Source: a virus
Taxonomy: Duplodnaviria; Caudoviricetes
DNA: 64,000 bases
Strand: one strand, 5' to 3'
Virus record (IMG/VR): IMGVR_UViG_3300033067_002581
Span: 90,908 to 154,907 of that record
The translations under genes were made by a program, and so were the position numbers. A model generated the notes under the pieces. The model ran no database searches. It was not told where the DNA came from and saw only the letters and a program-made list of their open reading frames with translations. Shown in pieces: positions 19,534 through 47,450 of this stretch; position 1 is the stretch's first letter, and each line of letters opens with the position of its first letter.

Positions 19534-19553
19534 GTATTTGTCTCGCCTAACGC

Positions 19554-20270: not shown

Positions 20271-20286
20271 GTGCTCTCTTGTCGAT

Positions 20287-20292
20287 TAATTA
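20287..20292 (-). promoter_or_regulatory. Candidate late promoter TAnTTA (TAATTA)
   Basis: 17 bp upstream of structural gene start 20270; overlaps upstream stop codon. Confidence 0.3.
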
Positions 20293-29312: not shown

Positions 29313-29332
29313 GTGAGAAGAATCTACCGTCA

Positions 29333-29338
29333 TAAATA
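29333..29338 (-). promoter_or_regulatory. Candidate late promoter TAnTTA (TATTTA); plus strand reads CATAAATA
   Basis: Divergent intergenic region heading the long leftward operon. Confidence 0.35.
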
Positions 29339-29400
29339 GAAATTGCAACATACGTTGCCAACAAAGAGCAGCGCAAAGACGACGCGCAAGGCAATACACT

Positions 29401-31462: not shown

Positions 31463-31475
31463 CTTCTATTCTCTA

Positions 31476-31551
31476 GATCTGATCTGTTCTGATCTGTTAA
31501 TACAGCTAAATCAGCTGATCTGATCTAAATGGATCGATCGCGCGACACGCG
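31476..31551. repeat. GATC-dense divergent intergenic element with tandem TCTGATCTGT
   Basis: 7 GATC in 31476-31539, tandem TCTGATCTGT x2 (31478-31497), CTAAAT x2, then CGCGACACGCG. Confidence 0.6.
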
Positions 31552-31626: not shown

Positions 31627-33504
31627 ATGCAATCTCCTTTTGAGTCAGCTTCAGTGCCCAAGGCTACAGACGTCATCATCGTTAACGATTTCTTTTGTGA
31701 AGAAATGCTGGGTGGAGCGGAGCTGACAACCGAAGCGATCATAGATGAGCTACGATCGCGAGATCTTAAGATAGCGAAGATCAGATCAGAAACGCTCACA
31801 CCCCAGCTAGTGTATGACAATCGCGGTCCGCTCTGGATCATCTGCAATTTCACCAGAGCTGACGTCAGGGCTCTATCAAGCATCGTCAGACTCGTTCGAT
31901 ACATCGTCATAGAGTATGACTTCAAGTTTTGCTCAGCGAGATCACCTGAAAAACACAAGGCTGAGACTGGAAAAGCCTGCCAGTGTGGTTTAGCCGAACA
32001 TGGCAAGTTTGTCTCTGAGTTGTTCTCGTCGGCGCAGGCAGTCATCTGGATGTCAGAGAGACAGCGCGACATCACTCTCGCTGCGTGTCAAAACATGAGA
32101 CCCAGAAAGCAGATGGTCACATCAAGCGTGTTCACTGATGCGACGCTTGACAACCTAGCGTCGCTAAGGGTGAAAGAGCGTTCAGCAAAGTGGATCGTGT
32201 TGCGATCCGATTCGTGGATCAAGGGAACGAAGCAATCGCTAGCAGTTGCGGTGTCAAAGGGGCTCGACTATGAACTTGTGGGACATGTCTCGTATGATGA
32301 GATGCTTCAGAAGCTTGCGAGCTCGTCGGGTATCGTCTATCACCCACCGGGCGGCGATACGTGCCCTCGGTTAATCATCGAGGCAGCGATCCTCGGCATT
32401 CAGATCGACATCAATGATAACGTCCTTCATGTGCATGAGCCATGGTCTGCGTTGCGTGGCGATGAGCTCATCATCGCGTTAAAGAAGAAAAGAGCCGCCG
32501 CCGCTGATTTCATCTGTAACGAATTAAAAGTTATGATCAGCGGGTACGTGACGACGCTTGACTGCCTATCAAAGGGTTATCCGATCATTGATTGCATCAG
32601 GTCAATGATCGCGTTCTGCAATGAAGTGATCGTGTTTGACGGTGGTTCGACTGATAACACGCTGCATCTGATAAGCGATTCATTCGATCCGAGCAAGGTG
32701 AAGGTGTTCACTCACGTCATCGATATGACCGATCCAGGCTTCGCTCTTGAGGATGGTGAGCAGAAAGCGAGAGCGAGAGCGAAATGCATGGGTGATTTTT
32801 GTTGGCAGCAGGATGCTGACGAGATCGTCGATGAACGTGACGCACTTGACATACAATTGATGGCAGCCAGGATGCCTGCAGACATCAACGTCGTGTGTCT
32901 CCCGGTCATCGAGTTCTGGGGGTCGCTTGATAAGGTTCGCGTCGATGTTACGCCATGGAAATGGCGTCTCAGCAGGAATGACAAGAATATCACACACGGT
33001 GTGCCAAGAATGCTACGATCTCACACACTAGACGGGCGCAGGATCGCATTGCATGGCACTGATGGCTGCGACATGATTTTTAAAGACTCTGGTGAACCAG
33101 TCGATAGCGCGACATTCATGACTCACGACGCTGACAGAGATAGGCAGCTAGCTCTGAATGGCGATACGTCAGCGCTTGAGAGATATGATGCATGGTTTGA
33201 CACAGTGACTACGATGCTTCCAAGCGTCTTTCACGTCAGCTGGCTTGACATCAATCGCAAGCTACATCTCTATAAAGCGTATTGGACTGCGCATTGGGCG
33301 TCACTGTACGGTGAAACACCAAAAAACAATTTCTTTGATAAGGATTGGGATGATGTCTCAGACGCTGAGATTCTCGCTCTATCACAAGATCTAAAAAAGA
33401 TCGGAGGTTGGATCTGGCACAGACCTTGGTCTGGTGCCGTTACACCACACATCAGGTGTCATCGACCTATGCCGAGATCGATAACGATCGGAGTGGCGTC
33501 ATGA
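31627..33504 (+). CDS. Two-domain glycosyltransferase (GT4/GT-B-like + GT2/GT-A)
   Basis: GGAE N-terminal loop and DTCPRLIIEA; second domain IVFDGGSTDNT and QQDADE (DxD); AAGGA before ATG 31627. Confidence 0.85.
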   Translation: MQSPFESASVPKATDVIIVNDFFCEEMLGGAELTTEAIIDELRSRDLKIAKIRSETLTPQLVYDNRGPLWIICNFTRADVRALSSIVRLVRYIVIEYDFKFCSARSPEKHKAETGKACQCGLAEHGKFVSELFSSAQAVIWMSERQRDITLAACQNMRPRKQMVTSSVFTDATLDNLASLRVKERSAKWIVLRSDSWIKGTKQSLAVAVSKGLDYELVGHVSYDEMLQKLASSSGIVYHPPGGDTCPRLIIEAAILGIQIDINDNVLHVHEPWSALRGDELIIALKKKRAAAADFICNELKVMISGYVTTLDCLSKGYPIIDCIRSMIAFCNEVIVFDGGSTDNTLHLISDSFDPSKVKVFTHVIDMTDPGFALEDGEQKARARAKCMGDFCWQQDADEIVDERDALDIQLMAARMPADINVVCLPVIEFWGSLDKVRVDVTPWKWRLSRNDKNITHGVPRMLRSHTLDGRRIALHGTDGCDMIFKDSGEPVDSATFMTHDADRDRQLALNGDTSALERYDAWFDTVTTMLPSVFHVSWLDINRKLHLYKAYWTAHWASLYGETPKNNFFDKDWDDVSDAEILALSQDLKKIGGWIWHRPWSGAVTPHIRCHRPMPRSITIGVAS

Positions 33505-34532
33505 GAGCGATCGTAACTGGAGCGCACGGCCTGATAGGATCGCACGTATCTCACCTTCTGCTGTCGTTGGGTCATCGCGTCTTTGGCATTGACAACGATA
33601 GTAGAGCAGTGTTTTTCGGTCAGACTGCTTCCACGGCTAACGGAGCCGTCAGCCTTCGGTCTCACGCCAATTACACTGATGTACCAACTGATGTCTCTGA
33701 TTGTGAGAGCGTAAATGCTATCGTTGCGCACGCGCGACCAGATCTTGTCATTCATGCCGCCGCGCAGCCGTCTCATGATCGCGCTGCAGAGATCCCGTTC
33801 CTTGACGCGCAAACAAATATCATCGGAACGCTGACGATCCTCGAGGCTATCAGAAGGCGCTCACCTCAAGCGACGTTCATACACCTGTCAACAAACAAGG
33901 TCTACGGCGATCACCCAAACGCGATCCCTCTCATAGAACTAGAGTCAAGGTACGACTACGCTGACGGTCGAGCGGGCATCACTGAGGACACGCCTGTCGT
34001 CTCAGGCGTTCACTCACTGTTTGGTGTTTCAAAGCTCGCCGCCGAGGCTTACGTGACAGAATATGGAAAGAACTTCGGGCTGCGGACCTGCTCACTCAGG
34101 GGAGGTTGCTTGACTGGTCCAGGTCACGCTTCTGTGCAGGCGCACGGGTTCATGTCATACATGATCAACTGCTTTTTAAACCGATCAAGGTATACGGTTT
34201 TTGGTTACAAGGGAAAGCAGGTCAGAGACCAGTTGCACGCAGCCGATGTCGCTGACCTGATCCTCGCGATAATGGATTCACCCTTCGAACCAGGTTCGGT
34301 GTTCAATATCGGTGGTGGTCGAAGCAACAGCGCGTCTGTGATCGAGTGCATCGACATAATCTCACAGATGACAGGTCTGAAACTAGACTGGTCGTACTCT
34401 GACAAACACAGGACTGGTGATCACGTCTGTTATATCACTGACAACTCCGCGATATCAGCGATCACAGGATGGTCGCCGACAAGATCCATTGAAAAGATCG
34501 TCACAGACATAATCCAACAGAAAACTAAATGA
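33501..34532 (+). CDS. NAD-dependent nucleotide-sugar epimerase, CDP-paratose 2-epimerase (RfbE)-like
   Basis: TGAHGLIG, HAAAQPSHD, STNKVYG, FGVSK, GKQVRD, FNIGGG, RTGD. Confidence 0.88.
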   Translation: MRAIVTGAHGLIGSHVSHLLLSLGHRVFGIDNDSRAVFFGQTASTANGAVSLRSHANYTDVPTDVSDCESVNAIVAHARPDLVIHAAAQPSHDRAAEIPFLDAQTNIIGTLTILEAIRRRSPQATFIHLSTNKVYGDHPNAIPLIELESRYDYADGRAGITEDTPVVSGVHSLFGVSKLAAEAYVTEYGKNFGLRTCSLRGGCLTGPGHASVQAHGFMSYMINCFLNRSRYTVFGYKGKQVRDQLHAADVADLILAIMDSPFEPGSVFNIGGGRSNSASVIECIDIISQMTGLKLDWSYSDKHRTGDHVCYITDNSAISAITGWSPTRSIEKIVTDIIQQKTK

Positions 34533-35440
34533 CAAAGATCACGATCGGCATTGTGAATTGCAACAGGCTGTTTTATCTCAAGGCGCAGGTTACATCGCTG
34601 ATAGCGAGCTTAGCGACAGACACGAGAGATGTGCAGCTGATCGTCGTTGATAACGCCTCATCGGAGGAGTCGACTAAAGATTATCTGAAGTATTTGAAAT
34701 CACTGACGTGTTTTGCTGAGACGATCGTGATAGAGCGTGAGTTCCGAGATCCCAGTAACGAATTCGCGATCGCGCTCAACTCTATAGTCTTAGCTGCGAC
34801 AGGCGAGATCATAATCCCGCTCCAGGGCGACGCGCAGTTTATAAGGCGTGAGTGGTTAAGAGATGTCACTGATGCGTGCAATAGAAGAGACTGCGGATGC
34901 GTCATAATCGACGCTCAGCGAGCCATCACGCATCATAAGAACGAGCCGATCAGGATCTCAAATTCACTATTCATTGATTTTGCGCGTCGACCTATCGCTG
35001 GCGCTGGTGATGTAGCGTATCCATCTCGCGTTATAAAGCGTTTAGCGCCATGGCGCGTTCAGAACGAATCACATGAGGGCGGGCACGACTCTGAGACAGA
35101 ATTTCTGAACAGAAATAGCGTACAGATGGTTGGCAAGGAGCTGCTATGTTACGTGCTCGCGGTCCCAGCGATGCTCACGATCCAGACAGATCCGATCGGG
35201 ACTAACGCAAGAGTTCGCGGTGATAAGCGTTATGGAGAGTATTTTCCTGCGCAGAGTAATGATCTGTATTATGAGATGAGTGATGCGCTTCGCTCTGGTG
35301 ACAAGCCCGCAAGCGCCGAGGACGTGATACGAGTCTGTCGCCCGATCGGCTGGCACGTGTCTCTTGGGAGCGACGGATCGTGGCTTAAAAATCCGATCGA
35401 TCCGCTGACGGCAACGCCTGCTCAGTGGGTGACTGTATGA
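34529..35440 (+). CDS. GT2-family glycosyltransferase
   Basis: IGIVNCNR, IVVDNAS, ALN, LQGDAQF. Confidence 0.8.
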   Translation: MTKITIGIVNCNRLFYLKAQVTSLIASLATDTRDVQLIVVDNASSEESTKDYLKYLKSLTCFAETIVIEREFRDPSNEFAIALNSIVLAATGEIIIPLQGDAQFIRREWLRDVTDACNRRDCGCVIIDAQRAITHHKNEPIRISNSLFIDFARRPIAGAGDVAYPSRVIKRLAPWRVQNESHEGGHDSETEFLNRNSVQMVGKELLCYVLAVPAMLTIQTDPIGTNARVRGDKRYGEYFPAQSNDLYYEMSDALRSGDKPASAEDVIRVCRPIGWHVSLGSDGSWLKNPIDPLTATPAQWVTV

Positions 35441-36162
35441 ACAAGTTTCATTTCTTGATACCGATGAGAGAGGCGCATCGCACACTCAAGCAGTGCCTGC
35501 TTTCAATCATGTCTCAGAGTTACACACGCTGGCGCGTCACGATAGTTGATGATGCGTCAAGCCCAGAGTCTAAGAATGAAAGTAAGCGAATAGTGAGAGA
35601 GCTGCAGAAACTATGCAGTGACGAGCAGGTGATCAACCTGATCTGTAGAGACAGCAGATCATGGGAGACATCTAACGTTCTGCTAGCGCTTGATGAATGT
35701 GATGATCGTGAGATAGCGTGCAGGTTAGACGCCGATGATTGGCTGACGGAGAATGATGCGTTACACGCGATAAACGCGGCTTATGAATCAACGAAATGTG
35801 ACGTTCTGTGGACGATGCACAGGTGGGGGTTCACCAGCATGAACATCTCAGCTCCACTTCCAGCAAACGCTGATCCGTATGAGCATCCATGGGTCAGCAG
35901 TCACCTCAAGACATGGCGAGCGTCGCTGTCTAAGCGAATTAACGTCGAGAATTATCGAAACGAGCGTGGTGAGTTCGTGAAGCGAGCTGGAGATCAGGCG
36001 ATCTTCCTACCAGTTCTGAAGATTGCCGCGAACAGAGTATTTCTGCCGATCGTCACGTATCACTACAACATAGAGATGACATCACAAACATTCAACTCAG
36101 ACGACGCTAGATTTCAGAGAGACGAGGCTGAATTTATCAGACGCAGAGGGTTCATCAGATGA
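35437..36162 (+). CDS. GT2-family glycosyltransferase
   Basis: CLLSIMSQSY, IVDDASS, RLDADDWL, AGD. Confidence 0.9.
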   Translation: MNKFHFLIPMREAHRTLKQCLLSIMSQSYTRWRVTIVDDASSPESKNESKRIVRELQKLCSDEQVINLICRDSRSWETSNVLLALDECDDREIACRLDADDWLTENDALHAINAAYESTKCDVLWTMHRWGFTSMNISAPLPANADPYEHPWVSSHLKTWRASLSKRINVENYRNERGEFVKRAGDQAIFLPVLKIAANRVFLPIVTYHYNIEMTSQTFNSDDARFQRDEAEFIRRRGFIR

Positions 36163-37043
36163 AAGTTTTTGTGTCGCGGGCGCCGGTCGCTGGGCCGTGG
36201 GGCGGAGGCAATCGATGGCTACGAGCGTTCTATGATGAGCTGCTAGCGTGCGGTCACACGATCACAGACGCATTAAGTGCTGACGTTCTTGTCGCTGTCG
36301 CTGTGAGTAGGGGTAGTGACGCAGAGCTCAGTGTCGCGGATGTATGTAACATAGCGCGGGCGCGAAACAAGAAGTGCGTCTTCAGGGTCAATGATTGCGA
36401 CGCCAGAAAAGGCACGACTGATGTCGATGCACGTGTCATGAGCGCGATAGCGAAGTATGACGCTACGATATTCGTGTCTGACTGGATCCGTCAGTATTTT
36501 GTAGCTGACCATCAACACACAGTCATCATCAACGGCGTTGATCATGAGGTGTTCACACCGTCAGATCGACATGCTCGTGAGCAGTCTCATACGCTCAAGA
36601 TCGTCACACATCACTGGTCTGATAACCTCATGAAAGGCGCTCACTGGTATGAGGCGATTGATGAGATGTCACAAGAACTCGATGTCGTTTTTACATACAT
36701 TGGCAGACACAGGTGCTCATTCTCAAAACGCACTATCATCGTGCCGCCATGTGATGGCCCTGAGCTCGCGGCGCACCTCAAGACCAACGATCTGTATGTA
36801 AGCGGATCAATATGTGACCCAGGACCGAATCATATCATCGAGGCCGTGATGTGTGGTTTGCCTCTTATAGTCTCGTCTGATGGTGGTGGGTGTGTTGAGT
36901 TCGCCGCTGGCGCGAGCGTCGTCTCAACTATAGAGCAACTTAAGTCAGTGATAAGACTGAGGCGTTTCAAGAGATCAACGATGACCTTTCAGACGTGGAA
37001 AGATTGCGCGAGAGCCTACGTGTCTGTCATAGAGTCGCTCTAA
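36159..37043 (+). CDS. GT4-like glycosyltransferase
   Basis: PWGGGN, IFVSDW, VIINGVD..F, KG, DPGPNHIIEA..CGLP. Confidence 0.88.
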   Translation: MKVFVSRAPVAGPWGGGNRWLRAFYDELLACGHTITDALSADVLVAVAVSRGSDAELSVADVCNIARARNKKCVFRVNDCDARKGTTDVDARVMSAIAKYDATIFVSDWIRQYFVADHQHTVIINGVDHEVFTPSDRHAREQSHTLKIVTHHWSDNLMKGAHWYEAIDEMSQELDVVFTYIGRHRCSFSKRTIIVPPCDGPELAAHLKTNDLYVSGSICDPGPNHIIEAVMCGLPLIVSSDGGGCVEFAAGASVVSTIEQLKSVIRLRRFKRSTMTFQTWKDCARAYVSVIESL

Positions 37044-37060
37044 TAGCGCAGGAGCATGAG

Positions 37061-37414
37061 ATGAAACAGAGATTCGCTATTATCGTAGAGAGCATCGCGC
37101 AGGCGGCGCTAGACTGTTATGTTGAGTCAGCGCTGACGGCCGAGACAGTGTCGGAAATGCAGCGAGACCTTCGTTGCAGGTTTCGCAAGATGATAAAAAA
37201 GATAGGCCAGCCAGTGTCAGAGCGCGCAGCTGATTGGATCGCTGATGAGCACCTGAGGCTCGCCAGACCGAACGGAAAGGAGACTCTAGAAGAGATGAAC
37301 ATGATACGTGATCCCGTGAGAGTCTCTGACCTCAGGTTTGGAGAGATAGAGCTTCTTAAGAAGCTGTTCCCGGCAGATGTCTCCGATCTTTATGATCGGC
37401 TGAATCAATCATGA
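37061..37414 (+). CDS. Hypothetical protein
   Basis: ATG at 37061 after GGAG; overlaps next gene by 4 bp. Confidence 0.5.
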   Translation: MKQRFAIIVESIAQAALDCYVESALTAETVSEMQRDLRCRFRKMIKKIGQPVSERAADWIADEHLRLARPNGKETLEEMNMIRDPVRVSDLRFGEIELLKKLFPADVSDLYDRLNQS

Positions 37415-38337
37415 AGATTGCGTTTCACAACGTTGATTTTCGATCACGCACCGGCCCAAACGCATTCTGCACGCGTCTCGCTAAGCAGCTCGCTCTCATG
37501 GGTCATGAGCTAAGCGATCCAGGATCACGATGTGATGTCGATCTGATAAACATCGAGTCGCACCAGAGACCGAGCGGCAGAGTCCAGATCCAGAGGCTTG
37601 ATGGGATCTGGACAAGAGCGACTGATGACGCGATCAACACGCCGATCAGGCGCTGGTATGATCGCTCGCACACCGTCATCTGGCAATCAGAATATGACAG
37701 ATCGTTAGTTCACAGGCGCTGGGGTGTCAGAACTGGCTATGTGATACACAATGGTTGCTCGCGACTTGGCGCTTTAGATGATAGCATCATGGCACGCGTT
37801 GGTGCGCTATCGCAGGTAGTTTTCTGCTCGATCGCATCATGGCACGCTCAGAAACGTCTCAGAGCTAACGTCGAGTTTATGCGAAGCTATGGACGTGAGC
37901 ATGGCGTGAAAACGTGTCTCATCGTGATCGGTGGATCGGCTGAGGCGTTGCCTGGTCCGGATGTGTTTTACTGTGGCGACGCTGATCCTGATATGTGTGC
38001 ATCAATTTTAAAAGCGTCGCGAGCCATGGTTCATCTCGCCTGGCGCGATCACTGCCCAAACGCGGTGGTTGAGTCTCTGAGCTTGGGAACGCCTGTCATC
38101 TGCGCAACCAGCGGTGGAACGCGAGAATTGCTGACAGATCAATCAGGCGTGATAATCTGTGATCATGATGATAGCGCGATAGACTCAACTACGTTTGACT
38201 TTGACGCGCCTCCAGACATAGACGTATCAGGATACGTGACGATACCAGAGAAAGATTCGTTTCAGAGCGATTTCTCTATTGAACGCGCGGCTCTCATGTA
38301 TGAGAGCGTCATGAAAGAGGCGTTAGATGCATGCTAA
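37411..38337 (+). CDS. GT4-like glycosyltransferase
   Basis: TGP, IWQSEY, VIHNG, QKR, DHCPNAVVESLSLGTPVI. Confidence 0.88.
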   Translation: MKIAFHNVDFRSRTGPNAFCTRLAKQLALMGHELSDPGSRCDVDLINIESHQRPSGRVQIQRLDGIWTRATDDAINTPIRRWYDRSHTVIWQSEYDRSLVHRRWGVRTGYVIHNGCSRLGALDDSIMARVGALSQVVFCSIASWHAQKRLRANVEFMRSYGREHGVKTCLIVIGGSAEALPGPDVFYCGDADPDMCASILKASRAMVHLAWRDHCPNAVVESLSLGTPVICATSGGTRELLTDQSGVIICDHDDSAIDSTTFDFDAPPDIDVSGYVTIPEKDSFQSDFSIERAALMYESVMKEALDAC

Positions 38338-39337
38338 AAAGGGTGTTGCGTTAGTGACAGGTGTGACTGGCCAGGATGGCTCATACCTCGCTGAGAAGCT
38401 GCTGCTTCATGGTTATGACGTCGTTGGTACAAGGCGCGCCGCGCATACAAGCGCAGCGTCACATGAGAACCTCGCGATGGCTCACGTGATCGCCAGTCGA
38501 ACGTGCAGAACACTAGATGTGACAGAGCTCGACCTGACGTGTACCGCTGACGTATCGTCTGTCATCAGAGCCGTCAGACCAGATCTGGTCTTCAACATGG
38601 CTGCGCAAGCTCACGTTGGGCTATCGTTTACAAGACCTGAATACACGCTTAATGTCACTGGTGTTGGCGCCGCGAGGGTTCTTGAGGCGTGCATAGAGAA
38701 CTCGACGAAAACCTGTAGAATCTACCAGGCGTCGACGAGCGAGATGTTTGGTGGGACCGATGGTCAACCTCTCAGTTCTCGCTCTAAGTTTGATCCCAAA
38801 TCACCATACGCTGCGGCGAAGCTGATGGCTCATCAGATCGCGACGATGTATCGAAAGCGTGGCGCGTTCGTGTCATGTGGTATCCTCTTCAATCACGAGA
38901 GCCCGCGTCGCGGGCTCGATTTTGTCACTCGAAAGATCACGACTGCATTCGCAGGGATGAAAGTCGGAAAGGTATCGAGCCTAGCGCTCGGTACGCTGAC
39001 AGCTCGCAGAGACTGGGGGTTCGCTCCAGAATACGTTGACGTCATGATAAGGTCTCTTGAAGCCGACGAACCCGCAGATTTTGTCGTGGGCACTGGTGTC
39101 TCGCACAGCGTGTCAGACATAGTCGTCGCCGCTGGCCGGTGCGCTGGGATGACAGCTGATGAAGCGCTTAGCAAAGTTAGCGTCTCTGACAGTCTGGCAC
39201 GGCCGATAGAGGTCAAAGAGCTGATCGCTGATACCTCTGAGGCGTTAGATCTATTTGGTTGGAAGAGCTCTGTTTCATTTGAGCAGATGATCGCTGATAT
39301 GTTTGACAGCGATCTCAAGATCGCGAGAAAATCATGA
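38327..39337 (+). CDS. gmd: GDP-mannose 4,6-dehydratase
   Basis: TGVTGQDGSYLAE, AAQAHV, QASTSEMFG, SPYAAAK, GILFNHESPRRG, FVTRKIT, RDWG. Confidence 0.96.
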   Translation: MHAKKGVALVTGVTGQDGSYLAEKLLLHGYDVVGTRRAAHTSAASHENLAMAHVIASRTCRTLDVTELDLTCTADVSSVIRAVRPDLVFNMAAQAHVGLSFTRPEYTLNVTGVGAARVLEACIENSTKTCRIYQASTSEMFGGTDGQPLSSRSKFDPKSPYAAAKLMAHQIATMYRKRGAFVSCGILFNHESPRRGLDFVTRKITTAFAGMKVGKVSSLALGTLTARRDWGFAPEYVDVMIRSLEADEPADFVVGTGVSHSVSDIVVAAGRCAGMTADEALSKVSVSDSLARPIEVKELIADTSEALDLFGWKSSVSFEQMIADMFDSDLKIARKS

Positions 39338-40245
39338 AAGTATGGATGCATGCGCCTCGTGAGGCATGGATAGTCGACAGGATCGTTGCTGAGTTTAAGG
39401 TCTCTAACGCAGACATCATTGTAGAGCGCCCAGATGACGCCCAGATGATCTGGGCTCCAGCTGGGTGGTGCGTCGATCAGCTCGTTCATTACAACAAGCC
39501 GATCCTTTCAACCGTTCATCACCTCTTTGCTGAAAAACCAGAGCAAGCTAGGCACGTAGCTGATCATGACAGGTTTGTGACCGCGTATCACGTTCCTAAC
39601 GTAAGAACGATGCACGAGCTTCAGAAGATAACCAGCAAACCGATCTATGTTGTGCCCTACTGGATCAACAGCGAGATGTGGTTTCCGATCACCCCCGGTG
39701 ACCGCGAGATGGCTAGAAGAAGCCTAGGCATTAAGGACTCTGACTTCGTCTTGGGGTCGTTCCAGAGAGACACCGAGGGCTCCTGCGATACGACACCTAA
39801 GCGTGAGAAGGGACCAGATATTTTCTGTGATTATGCTGAAGTTCTGAACAGCAGAAACTCGCACCTGATCGTGCTCCTCTCTGGATACAGGCGACAGTAC
39901 GTCATGAGTCGCCTTCTTTCAAAGAAAATCAAGACGTTGTATGTAGAGATGGCTCCGTCATCATCAATGCGCTGGTTATACAGCGCGCTTGACCTCTACG
40001 CCGTATCATCTAGGTGTGAGGGTGGGCCACAGGCGCTGCTAGAATGCGCTGCGTGTTGCGTCCCAATCATATCAACGCCTGTTGGAATGGCGGAGCAGCT
40101 GCTCGCTCCTGAATCAGTCAGCGAGCGACTGGAGCTTGCTGAAGCTAACATAGATGTCGCTAGAGATAAAAGTCTCGCGCTGCTGACGCCTCATGCGTTT
40201 ATCGCATATCGAGACATGTTCAAACACTTTTTGGAGAATAGATGA
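39334..40245 (+). CDS. GT4-like glycosyltransferase
   Basis: EKG, LYSALDLYAVSSRCEGGPQALLEC..P.ISTPVG (EX7E). Confidence 0.9.
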   Translation: MKVWMHAPREAWIVDRIVAEFKVSNADIIVERPDDAQMIWAPAGWCVDQLVHYNKPILSTVHHLFAEKPEQARHVADHDRFVTAYHVPNVRTMHELQKITSKPIYVVPYWINSEMWFPITPGDREMARRSLGIKDSDFVLGSFQRDTEGSCDTTPKREKGPDIFCDYAEVLNSRNSHLIVLLSGYRRQYVMSRLLSKKIKTLYVEMAPSSSMRWLYSALDLYAVSSRCEGGPQALLECAACCVPIISTPVGMAEQLLAPESVSERLELAEANIDVARDKSLALLTPHAFIAYRDMFKHFLENR

Positions 40246-41870
40246 TCGCTGGAATCTGGTCTGGACATGATGCATCCTTCGCTACGATGCGTGACGATGG
40301 TCAACTCATCACGCACTGTGAGATAGAGAGACACGCTCGTGAGAAGGAGATCGCCGCTGACTCACTAGAATGGCTATCAAGATCAGAGGATCTGAAGCAG
40401 ATAGACGCATACGCGACGTGCTGGTCGACGGCCGCCGTAAAGAAAAGCTACAGATACGCAGAGATAGCGAGCAAGCGGTTGCACGTGATCGGTCATCACG
40501 AGGCCCACGCCTGTGAGGCGCGCTTCAATAGCAAGTTTGATTCCTGCTCAGCGCTGATCATCGATGGTGGCGGGTATGATGATGCAGATGGACACACAAT
40601 CGCGACTAGCATCTGGTCATCGCCTGATGGAAACTCGCTATCGCCAGTTCTCAAGATACCTGAGAACGAGCTAAACATCGGCGGTGTCTGGACGAGAGCC
40701 ACGAGGTATGTTTTCAGGCTTGAAAGCGGATGGCCTCAGGGTCATCAGGCGGGCTCAGTGATGGCCATGGCAGCTATGGGCGATCCACGCAAGTACAAAG
40801 AGAGGTTCGCGTTAGCTTTCACACGTGATCGAGCCAAAGCGCAGCTGACGCCGACTGGTCACATTAAAGGCATGTCAGCGAAGGACCCTCGCTCTCCTAA
40901 GCACCCATATTTCAGTGACCTTGAGGCGCTCGCAGCGTCCTCAACACAGGAGATGTATGACCTCGCGGCTGGATTGCAAGCCGCGACTGAGGATCTAGTC
41001 TTTAAGCTGTTTGAACGCTCTGTGCAGGTGTCGCGAAACGTCTGTTTGGCTGGTGGTGTGGCGCTGAATTCCGTCATGATCGGAAAGCTAGTTGAGAAAT
41101 ATCCACAGGCCGCGATATATGTTTCAGCTGTCCCGTATGACGCTGGATTGTGCATCGGCGCCGCTAAGCATATGATTCATGTAGCTGATCGCGTTCCATG
41201 GGAAAAACCACGTTCGTGGAACGTCCCGTATCGCGGTGGTCAATACACTGATGGCTCTCAGGCGTGTACAGAGAATCTCGTGTCGCTCGCCGCTGAGCTG
41301 GGACTCGCCGTCAAGCAGGCGGGTGATGATGATGTCATAAAAAGACTGATGAACGGAGAGATCGTCGGCGTGTTTGCTGGAAGATCAGAGAGCGGCCGTC
41401 GGGCGCTGGGTCACAGGAGCATCCTCGCGGATCCACGTCAAGCTAGCATGAAGCAGATCGTTAACGATCGCGTCAAGCACCGCCAGGCGTACAGGCCTTT
41501 CGCTCCATCAGTGCTTCGTGAATGCGTCACTGAGTGGTTCACCGTCGACTGTGACTCACCATATATGAGTTTCGTGCTGAGATTCAAACAAGACAAAGTT
41601 AAGATGGTGCCAGCGGTCGTTCACTCAGACGGCACGGCGAGGCTGCAGACGCTGACGGCTGATGACAATGGCTGGTACTATCAATTTGTTCGCAGCTGGC
41701 GCGATGTCTCTGGCGTCCCGATGATACTGAACACGAGCTTCAATGACCGTGAACCGATATGTGAGACACCACGTCACGCTCTGACATGCTTCAAGAACAC
41801 TGACATAGACGCGGTGTATTTTGTAGACCAACAAGTGGTTGTTATCAAACCGGAGAATGCACGTGAATAA
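40242..41870 (+). CDS. O-carbamoyltransferase, NodU/CmcH/TobZ family
   Basis: GHDAS, EIER..R.K, HHEAHA, DGGG, VMAMAAMG, AGGVALNS, GRSESGRRALGHRSILADP, RPFAP, DGTARLQT, LNTSFN..EP. Confidence 0.95.
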   Translation: MIAGIWSGHDASFATMRDDGQLITHCEIERHAREKEIAADSLEWLSRSEDLKQIDAYATCWSTAAVKKSYRYAEIASKRLHVIGHHEAHACEARFNSKFDSCSALIIDGGGYDDADGHTIATSIWSSPDGNSLSPVLKIPENELNIGGVWTRATRYVFRLESGWPQGHQAGSVMAMAAMGDPRKYKERFALAFTRDRAKAQLTPTGHIKGMSAKDPRSPKHPYFSDLEALAASSTQEMYDLAAGLQAATEDLVFKLFERSVQVSRNVCLAGGVALNSVMIGKLVEKYPQAAIYVSAVPYDAGLCIGAAKHMIHVADRVPWEKPRSWNVPYRGGQYTDGSQACTENLVSLAAELGLAVKQAGDDDVIKRLMNGEIVGVFAGRSESGRRALGHRSILADPRQASMKQIVNDRVKHRQAYRPFAPSVLRECVTEWFTVDCDSPYMSFVLRFKQDKVKMVPAVVHSDGTARLQTLTADDNGWYYQFVRSWRDVSGVPMILNTSFNDREPICETPRHALTCFKNTDIDAVYFVDQQVVVIKPENARE

Positions 41871-42843
41871 GAAGAAGATCATAGCTGTGATCGGTCAGGG
41901 GTTCGTTGGTGGGTCGCTGTCTATCGGGATGCAGCACGCGTTTGACGTATATGCATATGATAAGAGTGGCAAGCTCGCTGACGGCGTCTATGATGGGACT
42001 GCGCTGTATGAGATTCGTGGCCCTCGTGAACGTTGGAGCGGTGATAAACACAATCCACACATCGGTAACATTGGTCAGCTTGTCTCTGTTTGCGAGGTCG
42101 GGGCGCCGGAGCGTTTCACAGGCGTCTATTTCATCGCTGTCCCGACGCCAATGACGGCGGAAGGTAGAGCTGATCTCTCGATCGTTGAGAGCGTGTTGCG
42201 TGAGCTCGCGAAGATTGATCGCAATGACGGTTTCACAAACAGGATCGCTGTCATCAAATCGACATGCCCACCAGGTTCCACACAACGCTGGAATGAGATG
42301 TTTGCTGACACGCCGCTACGTGTCGTGTTTAACCCTGAGTTCCTGACTGAGGCGAACGCAATCGATGATTTCAAGAACCAGGATAGGATCGTCCTCGGAG
42401 GTCCGAGACCGTTTATTAACGTAGTCAAGGGCGTGTTCGAGACAGCGTTTCCAAAAGTACCGATCGTCAAAACGTCGTCGACGACGGCTGAGATGGTCAA
42501 GTATGTCACGAACGTATCGCTGGCTGTGAAGGTCGCGCTCGCCAACGAGCTGTCACAGGTATGTGAAGCTCTTGATAGCAGTGGGTTAGACATTGATTAT
42601 GACAAAGTGATCGAATACGCGACGCTTGATAGGCGTCTCGGGACGTCACACTGGAAGGTCCCGGGCCCAGATGGGCACCGCGGGTTTGGAGGGTCCTGCT
42701 TTCCAAAGGATCTAAACGCGCTAGCGGTCGTGGCTCATGATCATGGTGTCAACGCGCATGTGATGCGCGCGGCGTGGAAAAAGAACCTCGAGGTCAGGCC
42801 TGAGCAGGACTGGATGAGCCTCAAAGGAAGAGCGGTCGTCTGA
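41857..42843 (+). CDS. UDP-glucose/GDP-mannose 6-dehydrogenase family, short form without C-terminal domain
   Basis: GQGFVG, VPTP, KSTCPPG, NPEFL, AEMVKY, GFGGSCFPKD (catalytic Cys). Confidence 0.92.
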   Translation: MHVNKKKIIAVIGQGFVGGSLSIGMQHAFDVYAYDKSGKLADGVYDGTALYEIRGPRERWSGDKHNPHIGNIGQLVSVCEVGAPERFTGVYFIAVPTPMTAEGRADLSIVESVLRELAKIDRNDGFTNRIAVIKSTCPPGSTQRWNEMFADTPLRVVFNPEFLTEANAIDDFKNQDRIVLGGPRPFINVVKGVFETAFPKVPIVKTSSTTAEMVKYVTNVSLAVKVALANELSQVCEALDSSGLDIDYDKVIEYATLDRRLGTSHWKVPGPDGHRGFGGSCFPKDLNALAVVAHDHGVNAHVMRAAWKKNLEVRPEQDWMSLKGRAVV

Positions 42844-42846
42844 AAC

Positions 42847-43857
42847 ATGAAAAAAAATAATCATCCGTGGCGAGTTGCGACAGCCAACACACTCTCGATC
42901 AGAGCGAAGGCCGCGCCAGGGCAGCTCATCCCATGGTTGCCGTCAGCCGCGCTCATCAAGAGCGTGCTTGCGCATGATTCTGAGGAAGATCGATATGTGA
43001 ACGATCGCACAGCGACGCTGCTTGACGTGACACCACCAAAGTCATGGTACGGAGATGCATCAGTCGCGCTCTCGGTTGACGTTAAGATCGCGAGCGCGTC
43101 GCTCGTACGTAACGAGTCTGAGTTGTTCAGGATCTCGTCAGCAGATCCAGAGTTGACGACAGCTGTCGCTGAGCGACTTGTCATGACAACAGTCGCACAG
43201 GCGACTGTTCTCGCGCTAGCTGACGCGCGAGAGGGTGTCAGGCGAGTGATGACGCGAGTAGGTGAACCTAACGCCGTTATCGCGTCAGCTGACAGCATTG
43301 TCATGATGTGCAGAACTCCAGAGCAAGAGTTTGCGGCGTCTGTCGTGTTAAATCAGAGACCTACTACAGTACACGGCGCGATGTACGCAAACACATCATT
43401 GGGAAAACGTGTCATATTTGGATCTAGCATCATCGATGCGTCAGAATCTGACATCGCAGCTGCAGCATTGACTCACGGTGAGACGCTGATCTGGCTGTCA
43501 AGAAATGAGCATGATTTCACGTATGTGCTGTCACAGAAGACGTGCGTTCCATGCGTACCAAGAGACAGAGATGTCACTCTAGCAACGAGACACGCTGCTG
43601 GTAGAGGAGACTGCAAGTTGCGAGACTTGAAGTCGAGATATGCGTTCATCTCAAGCAGTCCGTCTGATGCAAAGCAAAGCTTTTCATCGATCGTTAGCGT
43701 TGGGCTATGCCCGATAGAGGCGATAGTTGTGTTAGACTTTGGGTGTCAACCAATGTCCGTCGCGATCACGACCTCCGTCTCTGATGAAACGTTAGTCGGA
43801 CTCGATGACCTTGAGACGCTTGATCACGAGACATCAACGAGGCTACTCCTGTCATGA
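42847..43857 (+). CDS. Hypothetical protein
   Basis: 336 aa ORF coupled to both neighbours; no motif recognised. Confidence 0.55.
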   Translation: MKKNNHPWRVATANTLSIRAKAAPGQLIPWLPSAALIKSVLAHDSEEDRYVNDRTATLLDVTPPKSWYGDASVALSVDVKIASASLVRNESELFRISSADPELTTAVAERLVMTTVAQATVLALADAREGVRRVMTRVGEPNAVIASADSIVMMCRTPEQEFAASVVLNQRPTTVHGAMYANTSLGKRVIFGSSIIDASESDIAAAALTHGETLIWLSRNEHDFTYVLSQKTCVPCVPRDRDVTLATRHAAGRGDCKLRDLKSRYAFISSSPSDAKQSFSSIVSVGLCPIEAIVVLDFGCQPMSVAITTSVSDETLVGLDDLETLDHETSTRLLLS

Positions 43858-44681
43858 CTGACACCATCACTGAAACGATCGCACCGCTTGTTCTTCCTAC
43901 AGGAAAAGCGTATATCTCTTACTCAGAGATATCAGAGTGGGCTCGGTGCAGCTGGAAGCACAAGCTGAAACACGTTGACAAGATCGTGACTGACGATCCG
44001 AGCCCGTACCTCGTGTTTGGCTCAGCTGTTCACGCATGCTGTGAGTCGATCTTGCGAACGCGAGCGTATGATGTCGAGCAGCTTAAGAAATCACTGACGG
44101 ATGGGTGGAAACAGCACGAGGATGTCGAGTCGTTCAAAAAATGGAAGGTCTCAGACGCGACAAAAGAGGCGATCGCTCTGCTCGATGATATCCCGGCGTT
44201 CTTAGATGAAACGTTCCCGAGTTGGACATTAGCTGACGCCGAGGCGAGGCTATTCGAGCCGATAAAAACCCAGCCTGGAGTCAGCTTTAAAGGTTTCATC
44301 GACTGTGTCATAGCCGTGCCGACGTCTAAAGGCGTGACGCTGTGGGTCATAGACTGGAAAACATCCAACCGCGGGTGGTTTCGAGACAAGAAGAGCGATC
44401 CGATCACGCTAGCGCAGGTTGTCCTGTATAGACATCACCTCGCGAACAGAGACGGGTTTCCGGAGATCAACGCTCGATGCGGGTTTATCGTACTGAATCG
44501 CAGCGCAAAACCTGGAATGAAATGTGAGCTAGTGAAGGTGTCAGCGGGACCTGTCACGGTGCAGAGAGCTCTCAAGATGGTTGACAACGCTGTCTCATCG
44601 ATCCGTAAGGGTATCGCTATTAAAAACAAAGGCGACGCCTGCAAGTGGTGCGAATTCAGCAAGACTCCTCGCTGCCCATGA
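43854..44681 (+). CDS. PD-(D/E)XK nuclease, Cas4/RecB-like with putative Fe-S staple
   Basis: ISYSEI...RC, GSAVH, E, GFID, IDWKT, Q..LY, CKWC.....C. Confidence 0.88.
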   Translation: MTDTITETIAPLVLPTGKAYISYSEISEWARCSWKHKLKHVDKIVTDDPSPYLVFGSAVHACCESILRTRAYDVEQLKKSLTDGWKQHEDVESFKKWKVSDATKEAIALLDDIPAFLDETFPSWTLADAEARLFEPIKTQPGVSFKGFIDCVIAVPTSKGVTLWVIDWKTSNRGWFRDKKSDPITLAQVVLYRHHLANRDGFPEINARCGFIVLNRSAKPGMKCELVKVSAGPVTVQRALKMVDNAVSSIRKGIAIKNKGDACKWCEFSKTPRCP

Positions 44682-44727
44682 TGTCATAGCCATCATAAGA
44701 TTCTTGCATATTCGCGTCTAAGAGCGT

Positions 44728-44733
44728 TAGTTA
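44728..44733 (+). promoter_or_regulatory. Candidate late promoter TAnTTA (TAGTTA)
   Basis: In the 89-bp gap before GT4 gene 44771. Confidence 0.35.
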
Positions 44734-44770
44734 TCTTCTTGCATCACCAATTCCACGACAGAGAGAGCAC

Positions 44771-45994
44771 TTGCGTAAAATAAAAGTACTGTTTTTGAGC
44801 GATCACCCAATGTCTCCAACTGGAGTTGGGACTCAGGCGAGGTGGCTGATCGACGGTCTTGTGAAGACGGGACGCTACACGTTCAGGTGTTTTGGTGGAG
44901 CTGTCAAGCATGAGCGATATGATGTCATGCGCGTCAGCGACGATCTCGTTATACGCCCAGTTGACGGGTTCGGTGATCAGAACCTGCTGAGGCAGACGCT
45001 CTCTGCTGAGAAACCGGACGTCATGTTGCTCTTTACAGATCCGAGATTTTTCATATGGATCTGGGAGATGTCAGATGAGGTGCGATCAGTCTGCCCGATA
45101 GCGTATAACCATCTATGGGACTGCGAACCATATCCAGCGTTTAACGATCCTTTCTATCAGGACACTGACCTGATAAACTGTATCAACAAACCCACTTTCG
45201 ACATGCTTAGCGCTCGATTCCCAGATAAGACAAACTTCATCCCTCACGCAGTGCCAGAGGAGCTGTTCTTTCCAGAATCAGATGATCTACGTAAGCGATT
45301 CAGATCACAGCTGCTTGGCGTCGCTCGAGACGATCATTTTGTTGCTCTGTGGATCGCGAGAAACGCTCGTAGAAAACGCCCGAATGATATGTTGGCCGCC
45401 TGGGCGCTTTTTATGAAGGACAGAGCTCCTAAGAGCGCTACGCTGATCATGCATACGAACCCATCAGACTCTGAGGGTCCGAACCTGATCGCGACAGCGT
45501 CAATGCTTGGCATCGAAAATTCTGTAAAATTCTCTGCAGAGATAGTCGGATTTGAACAGATGCGAGCTTTATACGCAGCGTCAGATGTCGTCATAAACAC
45601 GAGTATGAACGAGGGATTTGGCGTCCCAACTCTAGAAGCGATGTATTGTGGCAAGCCGATCATCGCCCCAATGACAGGTGGTCTGACGCACCAGCTAAAA
45701 GACGCTGACGGTGAACCGACAGGTGTTGGCTTAGAGCCTGACGTCAGATCGCTAGTCGGTGGACAGCTTGTCCCGTACATTTATGAGGATTTGGTCAAGA
45801 CAGAGAGGTTTGCTGACGCTCTATGTCAAGTTGAGAGCTGGGGGCCTGTGAGACGCAAAGAGGTCGGCGCACGAGCGCGGAGATACGCAAAAACTGAATT
45901 CTCAATGAAGCGCTTGATTACGTCATGGGATGAGTCGCTCGTCAAGCTAGCTAACTCATGGTCACCGTCTCCAAGAATCGCGGTCATCAGATGA
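44771..45994 (+). CDS. GT4 glycosyltransferase
   Basis: PTGVGTQ, IPHAV, RNARRKR, NEGFGVPTLEAMYCGKPII. Confidence 0.92.
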   Translation: MRKIKVLFLSDHPMSPTGVGTQARWLIDGLVKTGRYTFRCFGGAVKHERYDVMRVSDDLVIRPVDGFGDQNLLRQTLSAEKPDVMLLFTDPRFFIWIWEMSDEVRSVCPIAYNHLWDCEPYPAFNDPFYQDTDLINCINKPTFDMLSARFPDKTNFIPHAVPEELFFPESDDLRKRFRSQLLGVARDDHFVALWIARNARRKRPNDMLAAWALFMKDRAPKSATLIMHTNPSDSEGPNLIATASMLGIENSVKFSAEIVGFEQMRALYAASDVVINTSMNEGFGVPTLEAMYCGKPIIAPMTGGLTHQLKDADGEPTGVGLEPDVRSLVGGQLVPYIYEDLVKTERFADALCQVESWGPVRRKEVGARARRYAKTEFSMKRLITSWDESLVKLANSWSPSPRIAVIR

Positions 45995-47139
45995 AAAAAA
46001 TCCTTCTAAGAGCTCCCGTCTTCACGCAGTCAGGATATGGCGTTCACGCCCGCCAGCTTGCTAAATGGCTCTTACGACGTTTTGGTAAAGAATCATTGAG
46101 GATCCAACCCATGTCATGGGGGATGACCCCGTGGTATCTCTCTGGACCTGATGATGACATAGACACCCTTCGTGATCTTATTGAGACAACTCCTACAAAA
46201 TACGACGTTAGCTTTCAGCTACAACTGCCTACAGAGTGGGATAGAAATCTATCAGATGTCGTTGTTGGAGTGACAGCCGGCGTCGAAACTGACAGAGCGC
46301 ACCGCTCATGGGGTGAGGCGTGTAACTCTGTCGCGCGCGTCATTGTGCCATCAGCTCACGCAGCTAAATCGCTTATCGCGGCGAGTGCAAACGAATCGCT
46401 GATCAGGGTCGTTCCAGAGTCATTTACGAAAGTGAGCGTTGGCAAGCAAACTCCGATAAAGCTAGGACTCAGCGATGACGCTTTCGGCGTGCTGATCGTG
46501 GGTCAGCTGACACACGGAGCGCCAGAGGCTGATAGAAAGAACATCTTTAATACGATTAAGTGGACTAGAGAGTTTTTATCAGCTGACAAAAACGCAGCCA
46601 TAGTCTTAAAGACAAACTGTGGAAGAAACACAGCGATCGATTTCACCGTCATAAAAAACACGTTCACAAAATTCATCTCTGAGACGTGTCCAACAGGCCC
46701 ACCAGTGCACATCCTGCACGGTAATATCTCAGACACAGAGATGACCTCACTGTATCAGAGCAAGAGCATCAAGTGCTTGGTGTCGCTCACGCGTGGTGAA
46801 GGGTTTGGCCTACCACTGCTTGAAGCTGCTGCGTCAGCGCTCCCTGTCATCGCGACTGACTGGTCTGCTCATACAGAATATCTCGGAAGTCGCTGGACTC
46901 GAGTTTCTAAGACGTTAGTCGAGATCCCAAAGTCGCGCGTCGACAACACCATTTTCGTGCCAGGCGCCAAGTGGGCAGAGGCTGACAAAGCCAGTTATGG
47001 TCAACGCCTGCTTAAGACGCGAGACAGCTATCGCGTTCCAAAAGAGTGGGCGATCGAGCTGCAGCGCAGCATTACGCAGACGCACTCTCAGGACGCAATA
47101 GAGCGAGCGTGGGATGCTGCGACGCGTGACATACTATGA
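45991..47139 (+). CDS. GT4 glycosyltransferase
   Basis: SGYGVHAR, DRKN, TRGEGFGLPLLEAAASALPVIATDWSAH. Confidence 0.92.
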   Translation: MKKILLRAPVFTQSGYGVHARQLAKWLLRRFGKESLRIQPMSWGMTPWYLSGPDDDIDTLRDLIETTPTKYDVSFQLQLPTEWDRNLSDVVVGVTAGVETDRAHRSWGEACNSVARVIVPSAHAAKSLIAASANESLIRVVPESFTKVSVGKQTPIKLGLSDDAFGVLIVGQLTHGAPEADRKNIFNTIKWTREFLSADKNAAIVLKTNCGRNTAIDFTVIKNTFTKFISETCPTGPPVHILHGNISDTEMTSLYQSKSIKCLVSLTRGEGFGLPLLEAAASALPVIATDWSAHTEYLGSRWTRVSKTLVEIPKSRVDNTIFVPGAKWAEADKASYGQRLLKTRDSYRVPKEWAIELQRSITQTHSQDAIERAWDAATRDIL

Positions 47140-47450
47140 TGACGCTCCTTTTCATACTATCGCTGATCGCGAACGTGATGTTAGCCACGTGTTTCACAAT
47201 AACGTGGCGTCGCTATTGGATGTTTGTTACTAACATAGATGCGAATGTTTCTCGCCTCAGACAACACTATGCGGCGATAAAAAAACTATCACAGCGAGAG
47301 ATACTATCAAACGATATCACTGTGATGGCGTTTGTCAAACACATCGCCGCCGCGAATGATACACTTAACGTGATCTTCGATAAGATCACAATTGAGACTG
47401 AACCAGATGAAAATGATCAAGAAAAGAGCGAAGAGGAAGCCCAAGTCTGA
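47136..47450 (+). CDS. Small protein with N-terminal transmembrane helix
   Basis: LLFILSLIANVMLATCFTITW followed by helical region and acidic tail. Confidence 0.5.
   Translation: MMTLLFILSLIANVMLATCFTITWRRYWMFVTNIDANVSRLRQHYAAIKKLSQREILSNDITVMAFVKHIAAANDTLNVIFDKITIETEPDENDQEKSEEEAQV

Follow-up and report, generated by a model that had tools for sequence, protein, structure and literature searches.

A hypervariable island of soluble glycan-assembly genes in an uncultured lineage of T4-like phages

Positions 31627-47139 of the DNA analyzed here (the window: 64,000 nucleotides, the last 64 kb of the 154,907-bp IMG/VR record IMGVR_UViG_3300033067_002581, which is 42% complete by CheckV) encode a block of glycosyltransferases (GTs) and nucleotide-sugar enzymes. 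We interpret the block as the version, carried by this phage, of a glycan-assembly island that is lineage-wide, hypervariable, and entirely soluble. The island is fixed in position, with a bifunctional GT at its left end and a nuclease followed by two GT4 enzymes at its right end. Full-length homologues of its first gene number more than 1234 in metagenomes, at 40 to 60% identity, and occur on at least 370 contigs in IMG/VR, while none was found among 50,697 GenBank phage records. Moreover, the related contigs reach 290 to 340 kb, and one of them (G013) has terminal repeats. Thus, the source phage is a member of an abundant, uncultured lineage of T4-like phages with genomes of about 300 kb. 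It is itself T4-like and probably virulent.

A fixed frame around variable, soluble enzymes

Comparison of 80 related loci (1.55 Mb, 1785 open reading frames [ORFs]) revealed a constant frame with changing contents. A homologue of the first gene was present in all 80, Gmd in 24, and the carbamoyltransferase in 18. In the near-complete genomes G013, G008, G012, G014, and G015, every GT1/GT2 match above the family cut-off fell within a single region of 14 to 30 kb that starts with the first-gene homologue and ends with two GT4 genes. Island content differs among relatives at 40 to 50% identity. The variable repertoire includes FkbM and other methyltransferases, DegT aminotransferases, a PseB-like dehydratase, a GT11 fucosyltransferase, nucleotidyl- and cytidylyltransferases, haloacid dehalogenase-type (HAD) phosphatases, UDP-galactopyranose mutase, and UDP-GlcNAc 2-epimerase, all of them soluble. 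The right-hand core (nuclease, GT4, GT4) extends to two cultured phages, Flavobacterium phage vB_FspM_immuto and Microcystis phage Mel-JY01, in which it is followed by other GTs and sugar-tailoring genes; the nuclease adjoins the GT4 pair in both, as it does in related loci L002-L011. Finally, the island adjoins baseplate genes in the window and in L006-L008.

The initial annotation claimed that the block lacks Wzx/Wzy, an exporter, a priming transferase, and a ligase and that its enzymes show no obvious transmembrane segments, and the claim holds in the record, in the 80 islands, and in ten large relatives. A Kyte-Doolittle scan gave no convincing transmembrane segment in any island enzyme, and hydropathy scanning found no polytopic membrane protein among the 176 ORFs of the 155-kb record. 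Among the 1785 ORFs of the related islands, only 2 reach three hydrophobic segments or more, and both fall outside the recurrent families. A family of 284-amino-acid ORFs in 21 related loci, which shares coordinates with one hydrophobic ORF, was considered and rejected as a membrane protein. Profile searches for Bac_transf (PF02397) gave no match in the record itself, which is 42% complete. Likewise, the genomes of ten large relatives, of which five reach 93% completeness or more, lacked matches to Polysacc_synt (PF01943; Wzx), Wzy_C (PF04932; Wzy/ligase), ABC2_membrane (PF01061), Bac_transf (WbaP type), and Glycos_transf_4 (PF00953; WecA type), while control genomes were positive in the same searches. 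We conclude that an assembly line without a phage-encoded membrane part is supported at the level of the lineage.

Gene content of the island and its flanks

The island is one tightly coupled operon on the plus strand, a run of fifteen open frames (Table 1). Thirteen of 15 junctions overlap, mostly as ATGA, and with the best start codons the sole gaps are 3 and 89 nucleotides, in keeping with the translational coupling proposed in the initial annotation. Base composition of the island matches that of its flanks, with no anomaly. Pfam and NCBIfam family searches located the whole annotated set, that is, the GTs, Gmd, an RfbE-like epimerase, a dehydrogenase, and a carbamoyltransferase, where it had been placed. 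The count of eight GT genes with nine GT domains (six GT4-like and three GT2) was confirmed, the ninth domain by an AlphaFold model.

Table 1. Genes of the island (31627-47139) and of its flanks in the window
Position	Strand	Assignment	Evidence and remarks
30180-31229	-	Left neighbor of the island, divergent	Homologue beside first GT gene in 51/80 related loci
31627-33504	+	Bifunctional GT, left bracket: N-terminal GT-B (GT4-like) and C-terminal GT-A (GT2)	AlphaFold2 model; weak GT2 Pfam match, residues 338-444
33501-34532	+	Short-chain dehydrogenase/reductase (SDR) nucleotide-sugar epimerase, CDP-tyvelose 2-epimerase-like	Pfam Epimerase E 6e-46; ATG at 33501 overlaps upstream stop
34529-35440	+	GT2	PF00535 E 4.4e-08
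35425-36162	+	GT2, DxD motif (LDADD), semi-conserved in lineage	PF00535 E 7.9e-11; homologue in 60/80 loci
36159-37043	+	GT4-like, weak match	PF00534 E 4e-05, under cut-off; homologue in 43/80 loci
36995-37414	+	Orphan ORF, 139 amino acids	No Pfam/NCBIfam match; homologue in 6/80 loci
37411-38337	+	GT4-like	PF13692 E 7e-08, PF00534 E 9e-08; homologue in 50/80 loci
38327-39337	+	GDP-mannose 4,6-dehydratase (Gmd)-like	PF16363 E 3.8e-92, full length
39334-40245	+	GT4, EX7E motif	PF13692 E 2.8e-08
40242-41870	+	NodU/TobZ/GdmN-family O-carbamoyltransferase	Carbam_trans_C PF16861 E 1e-58; Carbam_trans_N PF02543 E 6e-19
41857-42843	+	NDP-sugar dehydrogenase (Ugd family), two-domain	PF03721 and PF00984; TIGR03026 positions 3-295 of 413
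42847-43857	+	Orphan ORF, 336 amino acids	Same frame as dehydrogenase, after its TGA stop and one codon
43854-44681	+	PD-(D/E)XK Cas4/RecB-type nuclease, first gene of right bracket	PF12705 E 3e-20; C-terminal Cys cluster CKWC...C
44771-45994	+	GT4, right bracket, EX7E intact	PF00534 E 5e-16; MshA 3c4q E 1.4e-10
45958-47139 (ATGA-overlap start 45991)	+	Second right-bracket GT4, EX7E intact	PF00534 E 7e-10; beside 44771 homologue in relatives
47136-47450	+	Small protein, one N-terminal hydrophobic helix	Kyte-Doolittle 2.35 at residues 4-22; no family match
47407-48123	+	Sigma-factor-like protein, 238 amino acids, helical	Fold-level match only, weak; conserved motif KAFSYFNVVAKN
49983-50432	+	gp25-type baseplate wedge protein, start of recognizable baseplate block	PF04965 E 3.4e-07
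50454-52274	+	Baseplate wedge protein	PHROG baseplate wedge family match

The protein of the left bracket is a fusion of two GT folds. Its AlphaFold model, built on 41 homologues, has a pLDDT of 93.3. Residues 12-302 take a GT-B fold (VIA Z of 20.1 to sucrose-phosphate synthase 6kih, 18.8 to BshA, and 18.5 to PglA), and the best Foldseek matches of the GT-A half are the glycocin S-glycosyltransferases SunS and ThuS, then the chondroitin polymerase K4CP and TarS. A peptide S-glycosyltransferase was considered for the GT-A half and set aside: the SunS/ThuS match (E of 5e-09) has template-modeling (TM) scores of only 0.25 to 0.44 and polysaccharide and teichoic-acid GTs close behind, and therefore we do not use it as evidence for a peptide acceptor. 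At the right bracket, the GT4 at 44771-45994 is 50% identical to its counterparts in L006-L008 and 31% identical to GTs of immuto and Mel-JY01, and the chlorovirus GT B736L (3oy2, E of 1.3e-07) is among its sequence matches. A GtfA/GtfB-type pairing of the two core GT4s, compared by sequence, was rejected, as both keep EX7E and therefore neither resembles the inactive chaperone partner. GtfA (4pqg) matches the N-terminal domain of the first gene product at rank 39 (Z of 16.8), no better than other GT4s.

The nucleotide-sugar and tailoring enzymes were assigned with different degrees of completeness. The RfbE-like epimerase was borne out by PDB matches to 9rl0 (E of 2.3e-36) and to CDP-tyvelose 2-epimerase 1orr (E of 1.4e-34). 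The Gmd-like protein matches TIGR01472 at an E of 5e-85 and 285.7 bits, under the 415-bit cut-off. The carbamoyltransferase has both the Kae1-like N-terminal and the YrdC-like C-terminal domains, and it aligns over its full length to PDB 7xb6 (E of 8e-49), GdmN, and TobZ. It is 27 to 35% identical to the "Nol-like carbamoyltransferase" of cyanomyophages and Pelagibacter phage HTVC008M, and in relatives that carry one it always lies inside the island; in P-SSM2, the cluster that holds it sits between two tail-fiber genes. The gene annotated as a UDP-Glc/GDP-Man dehydrogenase does encode a real Ugd-family enzyme, but its C-terminal UDP-binding domain (PF03720) was matched neither in the protein nor in the next ORF, 42847-43857. 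The short form is itself conserved, with 59% identity and the same end in L008, and it is present in 10 of the 80 loci. Moreover, a carbamoyltransferase gene adjacent to or near a Ugd gene is also found in L007, L008, and HTVC008M. In L007, a near-colinear relative, a 258-amino-acid ORF splits the dehydrogenase body from a 96-amino-acid piece with the last ~48 residues (L007:6893-9108), and the insert looks like a mobile insertion, for example, an intron or a homing-endonuclease cassette.

Three genes come in addition to those of the initial annotation: the Cas4-like nuclease and the two orphan ORFs. The orphan at 42847-43857 has no family match, no homologue in the related loci, and no likeness to the missing dehydrogenase domain, and its Atlas model has a pLDDT of 0.27.

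The flanks agree in part with the earlier placement of the island between virion gene blocks and its run into sigma and baseplate genes. Downstream, a baseplate block is indeed present, with gp25 and a baseplate wedge protein. Upstream, however, the first virion genes to be recognized encode terminase, portal, and head protein, at 1-9825. The genes at 15721-29588 are unassigned, and Pfam and PHROGs searches gave no match anywhere in 15721-31229, the divergent left neighbor (30180-31229) included; we take that neighbor to be a truncated GroEL-like gene. Between it and the island, the intergenic region at 31463-31540 contains several GATCTGATCT-like words and two TCTAAAT words. The sigma assignment is supported weakly and at the level of fold: the protein has no Pfam, PHROG, NCBIfam, or PDB sequence match, and its AlphaFold2 model has a pLDDT of 66, but the top 50 Foldseek rows are almost all sigma factors (best E of 0.013). 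Homologues of the gene lie directly upstream of baseplate genes in immuto and Mel-JY01. The gene is a candidate for a late sigma factor that lies beyond the reach of the family models.

Two further observations were made. IMG/VR labels the record a "provirus," although its genes are those expected of a large, lytic, T4-like phage, and the host-like sugar island may have influenced the label. Finally, the first third of a single 981-amino-acid ORF on the minus strand of the window (10340-13285) matches an SbcD-like nuclease and the remainder an SbcC-like ATPase; the gp47- and gp46-type subunits of the recombination nuclease seem to be fused in it.

Candidate acceptors of the proposed glycan

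The model that we propose for the sugars, the order of the steps, and the acceptor builds on the observed gene content, coupling, architecture, variability, and absence of membrane genes. By family membership, Gmd would make GDP-4-keto-6-deoxymannose and the tyvelose-epimerase-like SDR would reshape a nucleotide sugar, while the truncated dehydrogenase possibly supplies a uronic acid. An oligosaccharide would be built in the cytoplasm by the nine GT domains. The bracket enzymes, namely, the GT-B/GT-A protein and the GT4 pair, would attach inner sugars to a lineage-conserved acceptor, the interchangeable inner genes would vary the outer sugars, and the NodU/TobZ-type enzyme would O-carbamoylate a sugar hydroxyl. 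On exposed virion proteins, the outcome would be different glycan "serotypes" between related phages. The initial annotation had proposed a carbamoylated multi-sugar glycan of deoxyhexose and uronic acid. A carbamoylated multi-sugar with 6-deoxyhexose may fairly be expected because Gmd, the carbamoyltransferase, and nine GT domains are present together; the uronic-acid component is uncertain because the dehydrogenase lacks the UDP-binding domain.

What the glycan would be attached to can be argued from the company that the island keeps. We tentatively favor a phage-made acceptor, most likely exposed virion proteins such as fibers, baseplate, sheath, or head decoration, in line with the virion target put forward in the initial annotation, and we hold this with a little less than even confidence. 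A phage-made acceptor seems most likely because the phages encode no lipid-carrier enzyme, flippase, polymerase, or exporter and because the brackets are conserved across phages whose relatives infect very different hosts. Cultured relatives of the lineage grow on Bacteroidota and on Cyanobacteria, and conservation of the bracket GTs despite this spread fits virion proteins as the target, as does the fixed position beside baseplate genes. Chloroviruses and mimiviruses are precedents for glycosylated virions, and among phages, virion glycosylation by phage GTs has a precedent in mycobacteriophages (Freeman et al. 2023, as cited in PMC12619734). Moreover, [ST]GS tripeptides number 123 against 54 expected from shuffles and are concentrated in about ten large virion-region proteins (z of 4 to 7), at 2 to 10 times the composition expectation in, for example, 15721-18087, 18313-19533, 53760-57017, 57840-61592, and G000:C1:80964-87226.

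Several points weigh against virion proteins as the acceptor. The [ST]GS excess is suggestive at best, because fiber-type repeats can give the same excess, and the analysis turned up neither a glycoprotein or sequon nor an acceptor-binding domain. The acceptor cannot be read from a GT4 or GT2 fold, and soluble GTs of O-antigen pathways, which act on host lipid-linked acceptors, also lack transmembrane segments. Proven DNA arabinosyltransferases, too, have their best matches in MshA, BshA, and sucrose-phosphate synthase, the solved structures that recur among the matches here (PMC13326640). The core in immuto and Mel-JY01 is not beside virion genes. Finally, promoter sequences gave no hint of when the island is expressed: the window does not contain the TATAAATA late-promoter word, and no enriched motif emerged from a k-mer analysis of 35 upstream regions. 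The island is also co-oriented with a sigma-like gene whose product would be needed before late genes.

The strongest alternative is that the phage remodels the host surface. Soluble phage GTs would extend a host undecaprenyl-phosphate-linked intermediate on the inner side of the membrane, and a host flippase or ABC exporter together with a ligase would display the altered O-antigen or capsule, either to block superinfection or to keep progeny from sticking to debris. O-antigen GTs are normally soluble or peripheral, and therefore the missing transmembrane segments are no argument against this alternative. The nearest named relatives of the island enzymes are lipopolysaccharide (LPS), exopolysaccharide, and teichuronic-acid GTs, and published studies of GT-rich islands in pelagimyophages and of cyanophage "LPS clusters" favor host-surface modification (PMC7029224, PMC3037559, PMC12801897). 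Neither the ten large genomes nor the 80 islands, however, contain a priming transferase, flippase, polymerase, ligase, or exporter, and a hypervariable product would need to pass through the export systems of the host. Bracket GTs conserved in a lineage with cultured relatives on both Bacteroidota and Cyanobacteria would also fit a phage-made acceptor better than host-specific lipid intermediates. Known O-antigen conversion, moreover, is a trait of temperate phages and uses membrane Gtr proteins, and the source phage is T4-like and probably virulent. We regard host-surface remodeling as unlikely but deserving of serious attention.

Alternatively, the acceptor could be DNA: the carbamoyltransferase and at least some of the GTs would act on 5-hydroxymethylcytosine (5hmC) or another hydroxylated base and build a glycan or carbamate there that blocks restriction. 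The genome does encode a thymidylate-synthase (TS) homologue of the dCMP-hydroxymethylase type, with CMP and dCMP hydroxymethylases as its best PDB matches (MilA, E of 9e-26; T4 dCH, E of 4e-22). The homologue keeps the catalytic Cys and D169 and has Asp at the N177 position; by published criteria, Asp at N177 sets cytosine specificity and D169 separates such enzymes from 5-hydroxycytosine synthases (PMC13326640). A cytosine-type TS homologue was found in 10 of 14 large relatives, and the gene is paired with an SDR epimerase gene in most of ten related large contigs (L112-L121). In the source genome, its neighbors are a thymidine kinase, a dCMP deaminase, and an SDR epimerase, and the TS homologue gene overlaps the SDR nucleotide-sugar epimerase gene (G000:C1:15146-17034, outside the window; L013). 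The pair suggests a sugar-linked cytosine modification whose GT partner is not among the identified genes. The genome also encodes a strong 5-hydroxymethyldeoxyuridine (5-hmdU) DNA kinase (PF18723, E of 2.5e-101), which lies outside the window at G000:C1:32074-33081 (L014:12074-13081) beside UXS-like SDR, Nudix-like, and deoxyribosyltransferase-like proteins. In the 155 kb and in complete relatives, all GT1/GT2 genes above the family cut-off are confined to the island, and a nuclease is embedded in the conserved core. Finally, GT4-like enzymes make mono- to tri-glycosylated cytosines (PMC13326640; bioRxiv 2023.12.21.572611), and a NodU/TobZ-family enzyme carbamoylates 5hmC (PMC8670742).

Comparative genomics nevertheless weakens the case for DNA, even though a dCMP-hydroxymethylase-type enzyme was found. 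DNA is disfavored as the acceptor because near-complete relatives without the TS homologue keep nearly the same island: G015, which is 93% complete, lacks the homologue and has an island with nearly the same families as the source phage, and G014 likewise lacks it. The complete genome of Mel-JY01 also lacks one, and the ThyA of immuto is of the canonical kind, with D169 and N177. None of the GT families is confined to TS-positive genomes, and the carbamoyltransferase does not correlate with the TS homologue (both in 5 genomes, the homologue alone in 6, the carbamoyltransferase alone in 1, and neither in 2). Moreover, 116 kb separate the TS gene from the island, whereas in known DNA-modification systems the GT genes sit close to the gene for the base-modifying enzyme, and no known DNA glycan calls for as many as nine GT domains. 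Unmodified contigs, too, have been found to carry carbamoyltransferase genes with GT group 1 genes at their flanks (PMC8670742), and the 5-hmdU DNA kinase is rare in the lineage, with only a weak second match, in G013. A Tet/JBP dioxygenase profile gave no match, but it was silent in the control genomes too. We consider DNA improbable as the acceptor of the island glycan as a whole; one or two island enzymes may serve a cytosine pathway in TS-positive phages.

It is slightly less probable still that the island makes some other soluble product, such as a cytoplasmic polysaccharide, a glycolipid, or a glycosylated small molecule of aminoglycoside or Nod-factor type, that aids infection in another way. 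The fused GT-B/GT-A enzyme does resemble alternating polymerases (K4CP and heparosan synthase), MshA/BshA-type GT4s use small soluble acceptors, and the closest solved relatives of the carbamoyltransferase tailor natural products (GdmN, TobZ, and novobiocin). Fold matches of this kind are generic for GT-A and GT-B, however, no exporter was found, and scaffold-forming genes (cyclitol synthase, nonribosomal peptide or polyketide synthases, and chitin-oligomer synthase) were not found in the window. Last, that the island is host-derived filler DNA without function, a possibility raised for cyanophage LPS clusters (PMC3037559) and in line with the truncated dehydrogenase and an orphan ORF, is very hard to credit given the open frames, intact EX7E and DxD motifs, ATGA coupling, more than 1234 full-length first-gene homologues at 40 to 60% identity, fixed position in hundreds of contigs, uniform composition, and conservation of the truncated dehydrogenase form itself.

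Relation to known systems and implications

Earlier studies have described hypervariable islands with many GTs among the structural genes of aquatic T4-like phages (PMC7029224; PMC3037559). A host recognition cluster (HRC) is defined as a hypervariable, non-syntenic island within the structural genes of such a phage that has many GT and LPS-type genes (PMC7029224), and the island described here fits that definition. The HRCs of pelagi- and cyanomyophages and the LPS clusters of P-SSM2, S-SSM7, S-SM2, and S-SCSM2R (PMC7029224, PMC3037559, PMC12801897) are, like the island, hypervariable and placed in or beside structural genes, and they share with it GTs, nucleotide-sugar enzymes, a UDP-glucose dehydrogenase, and the homologous Nol-like carbamoyltransferase. 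Unlike the island at 31627-47139, which has no fiber-like gene, the HRC lies between VrlC and gp14 and has tail-fiber genes inside; the island is instead flanked by the presumed GroEL-like gene on one side and the sigma-like gene and gp25 on the other. The island also belongs to a different, uncultured lineage of about 300 kb and has fixed brackets. The authors of the HRC study favored modification of the host O-chain (PMC7029224), whereas absence of membrane genes and conservation of the brackets point to a phage-made acceptor here. New in this case are the lineage itself, an arrangement of brackets that includes a fused GT-B/GT-A enzyme, a systematic search that excluded membrane components, and the separation of the island from DNA-modification genes.

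Other systems resemble the island in part. As described in PMC12619734, which cites Freeman et al. 2023, the mycobacteriophages Che8, Corndog, and Myrna likewise use soluble phage GTs without membrane machinery; by that account, their glycan coat on capsid and tail proteins is proven by mass spectrometry. They are actinobacteriophages with 2 to 6 GTs, with or without methyltransferases, and are not known to have a hypervariable bracket architecture. Identity of the source lineage with the "moraphages" was considered because four core GT groups are described for them (PMC12619734). Phage DNA pathways (arabinosyl-5-hydroxycytosine [5hoC] in RB69 and DLP3, hexosyl-5hoC in RL38J1, TET/5mYOX-linked GTs, and the 5hmC carbamoyltransferase) employ GT4-like and GT-A enzymes, partner epimerases, and a NodU/TobZ-family carbamoyltransferase, as are found in the source phage. 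Those pathways, however, add one to three sugars and cluster with the base-modifying enzyme (PMC13326640, bioRxiv 2023.12.21.572611, PMC8670742), whereas the island has nine GT domains and is 116 kb from such a gene. Bacterial O-antigen and capsule loci are similar to the island in having conserved flanks, a variable center, soluble GT2 and GT4 enzymes, and nucleotide-sugar genes. Membrane components are defining for such loci, whereas the lineage of the island lacks a priming transferase, Wzx/Wzy, an ABC-2 exporter, and a ligase. Among eukaryotic viruses, chlorovirus PBCV-1, which has its own GMD, and the Megavirinae carry clade-specific clusters of soluble GTs that glycosylate capsids or fibrils, with targets known from experiment. 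The giant viruses thus share with the island their own nucleotide-sugar synthesis and soluble GTs, but similarity is limited to the level of the GT4 family.

GT-rich hypervariable islands make up 5 to 10% of many large aquatic phage genomes, and cultured phages with the core (immuto and Mel-JY01) or with the carbamoyltransferase-dehydrogenase module (HTVC008M) make the question of the acceptor testable. With virions as the target, glycan coats would bear on the host range of phages, on their decay and grazing in water, and on how the particles are recognized. We speculate that the whole abundant lineage of about 300 kb coats its virions with a self-made cytoplasmic glycan that has a fixed inner part and a swappable cassette that diversifies the outer part from one close relative to the next, much as O-antigen serotypes differ among bacteria, a possibility that we find attractive but more open to doubt than to belief. 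Should a lineage-wide coat be real, glycan variation would be a general axis of phage surface evolution.

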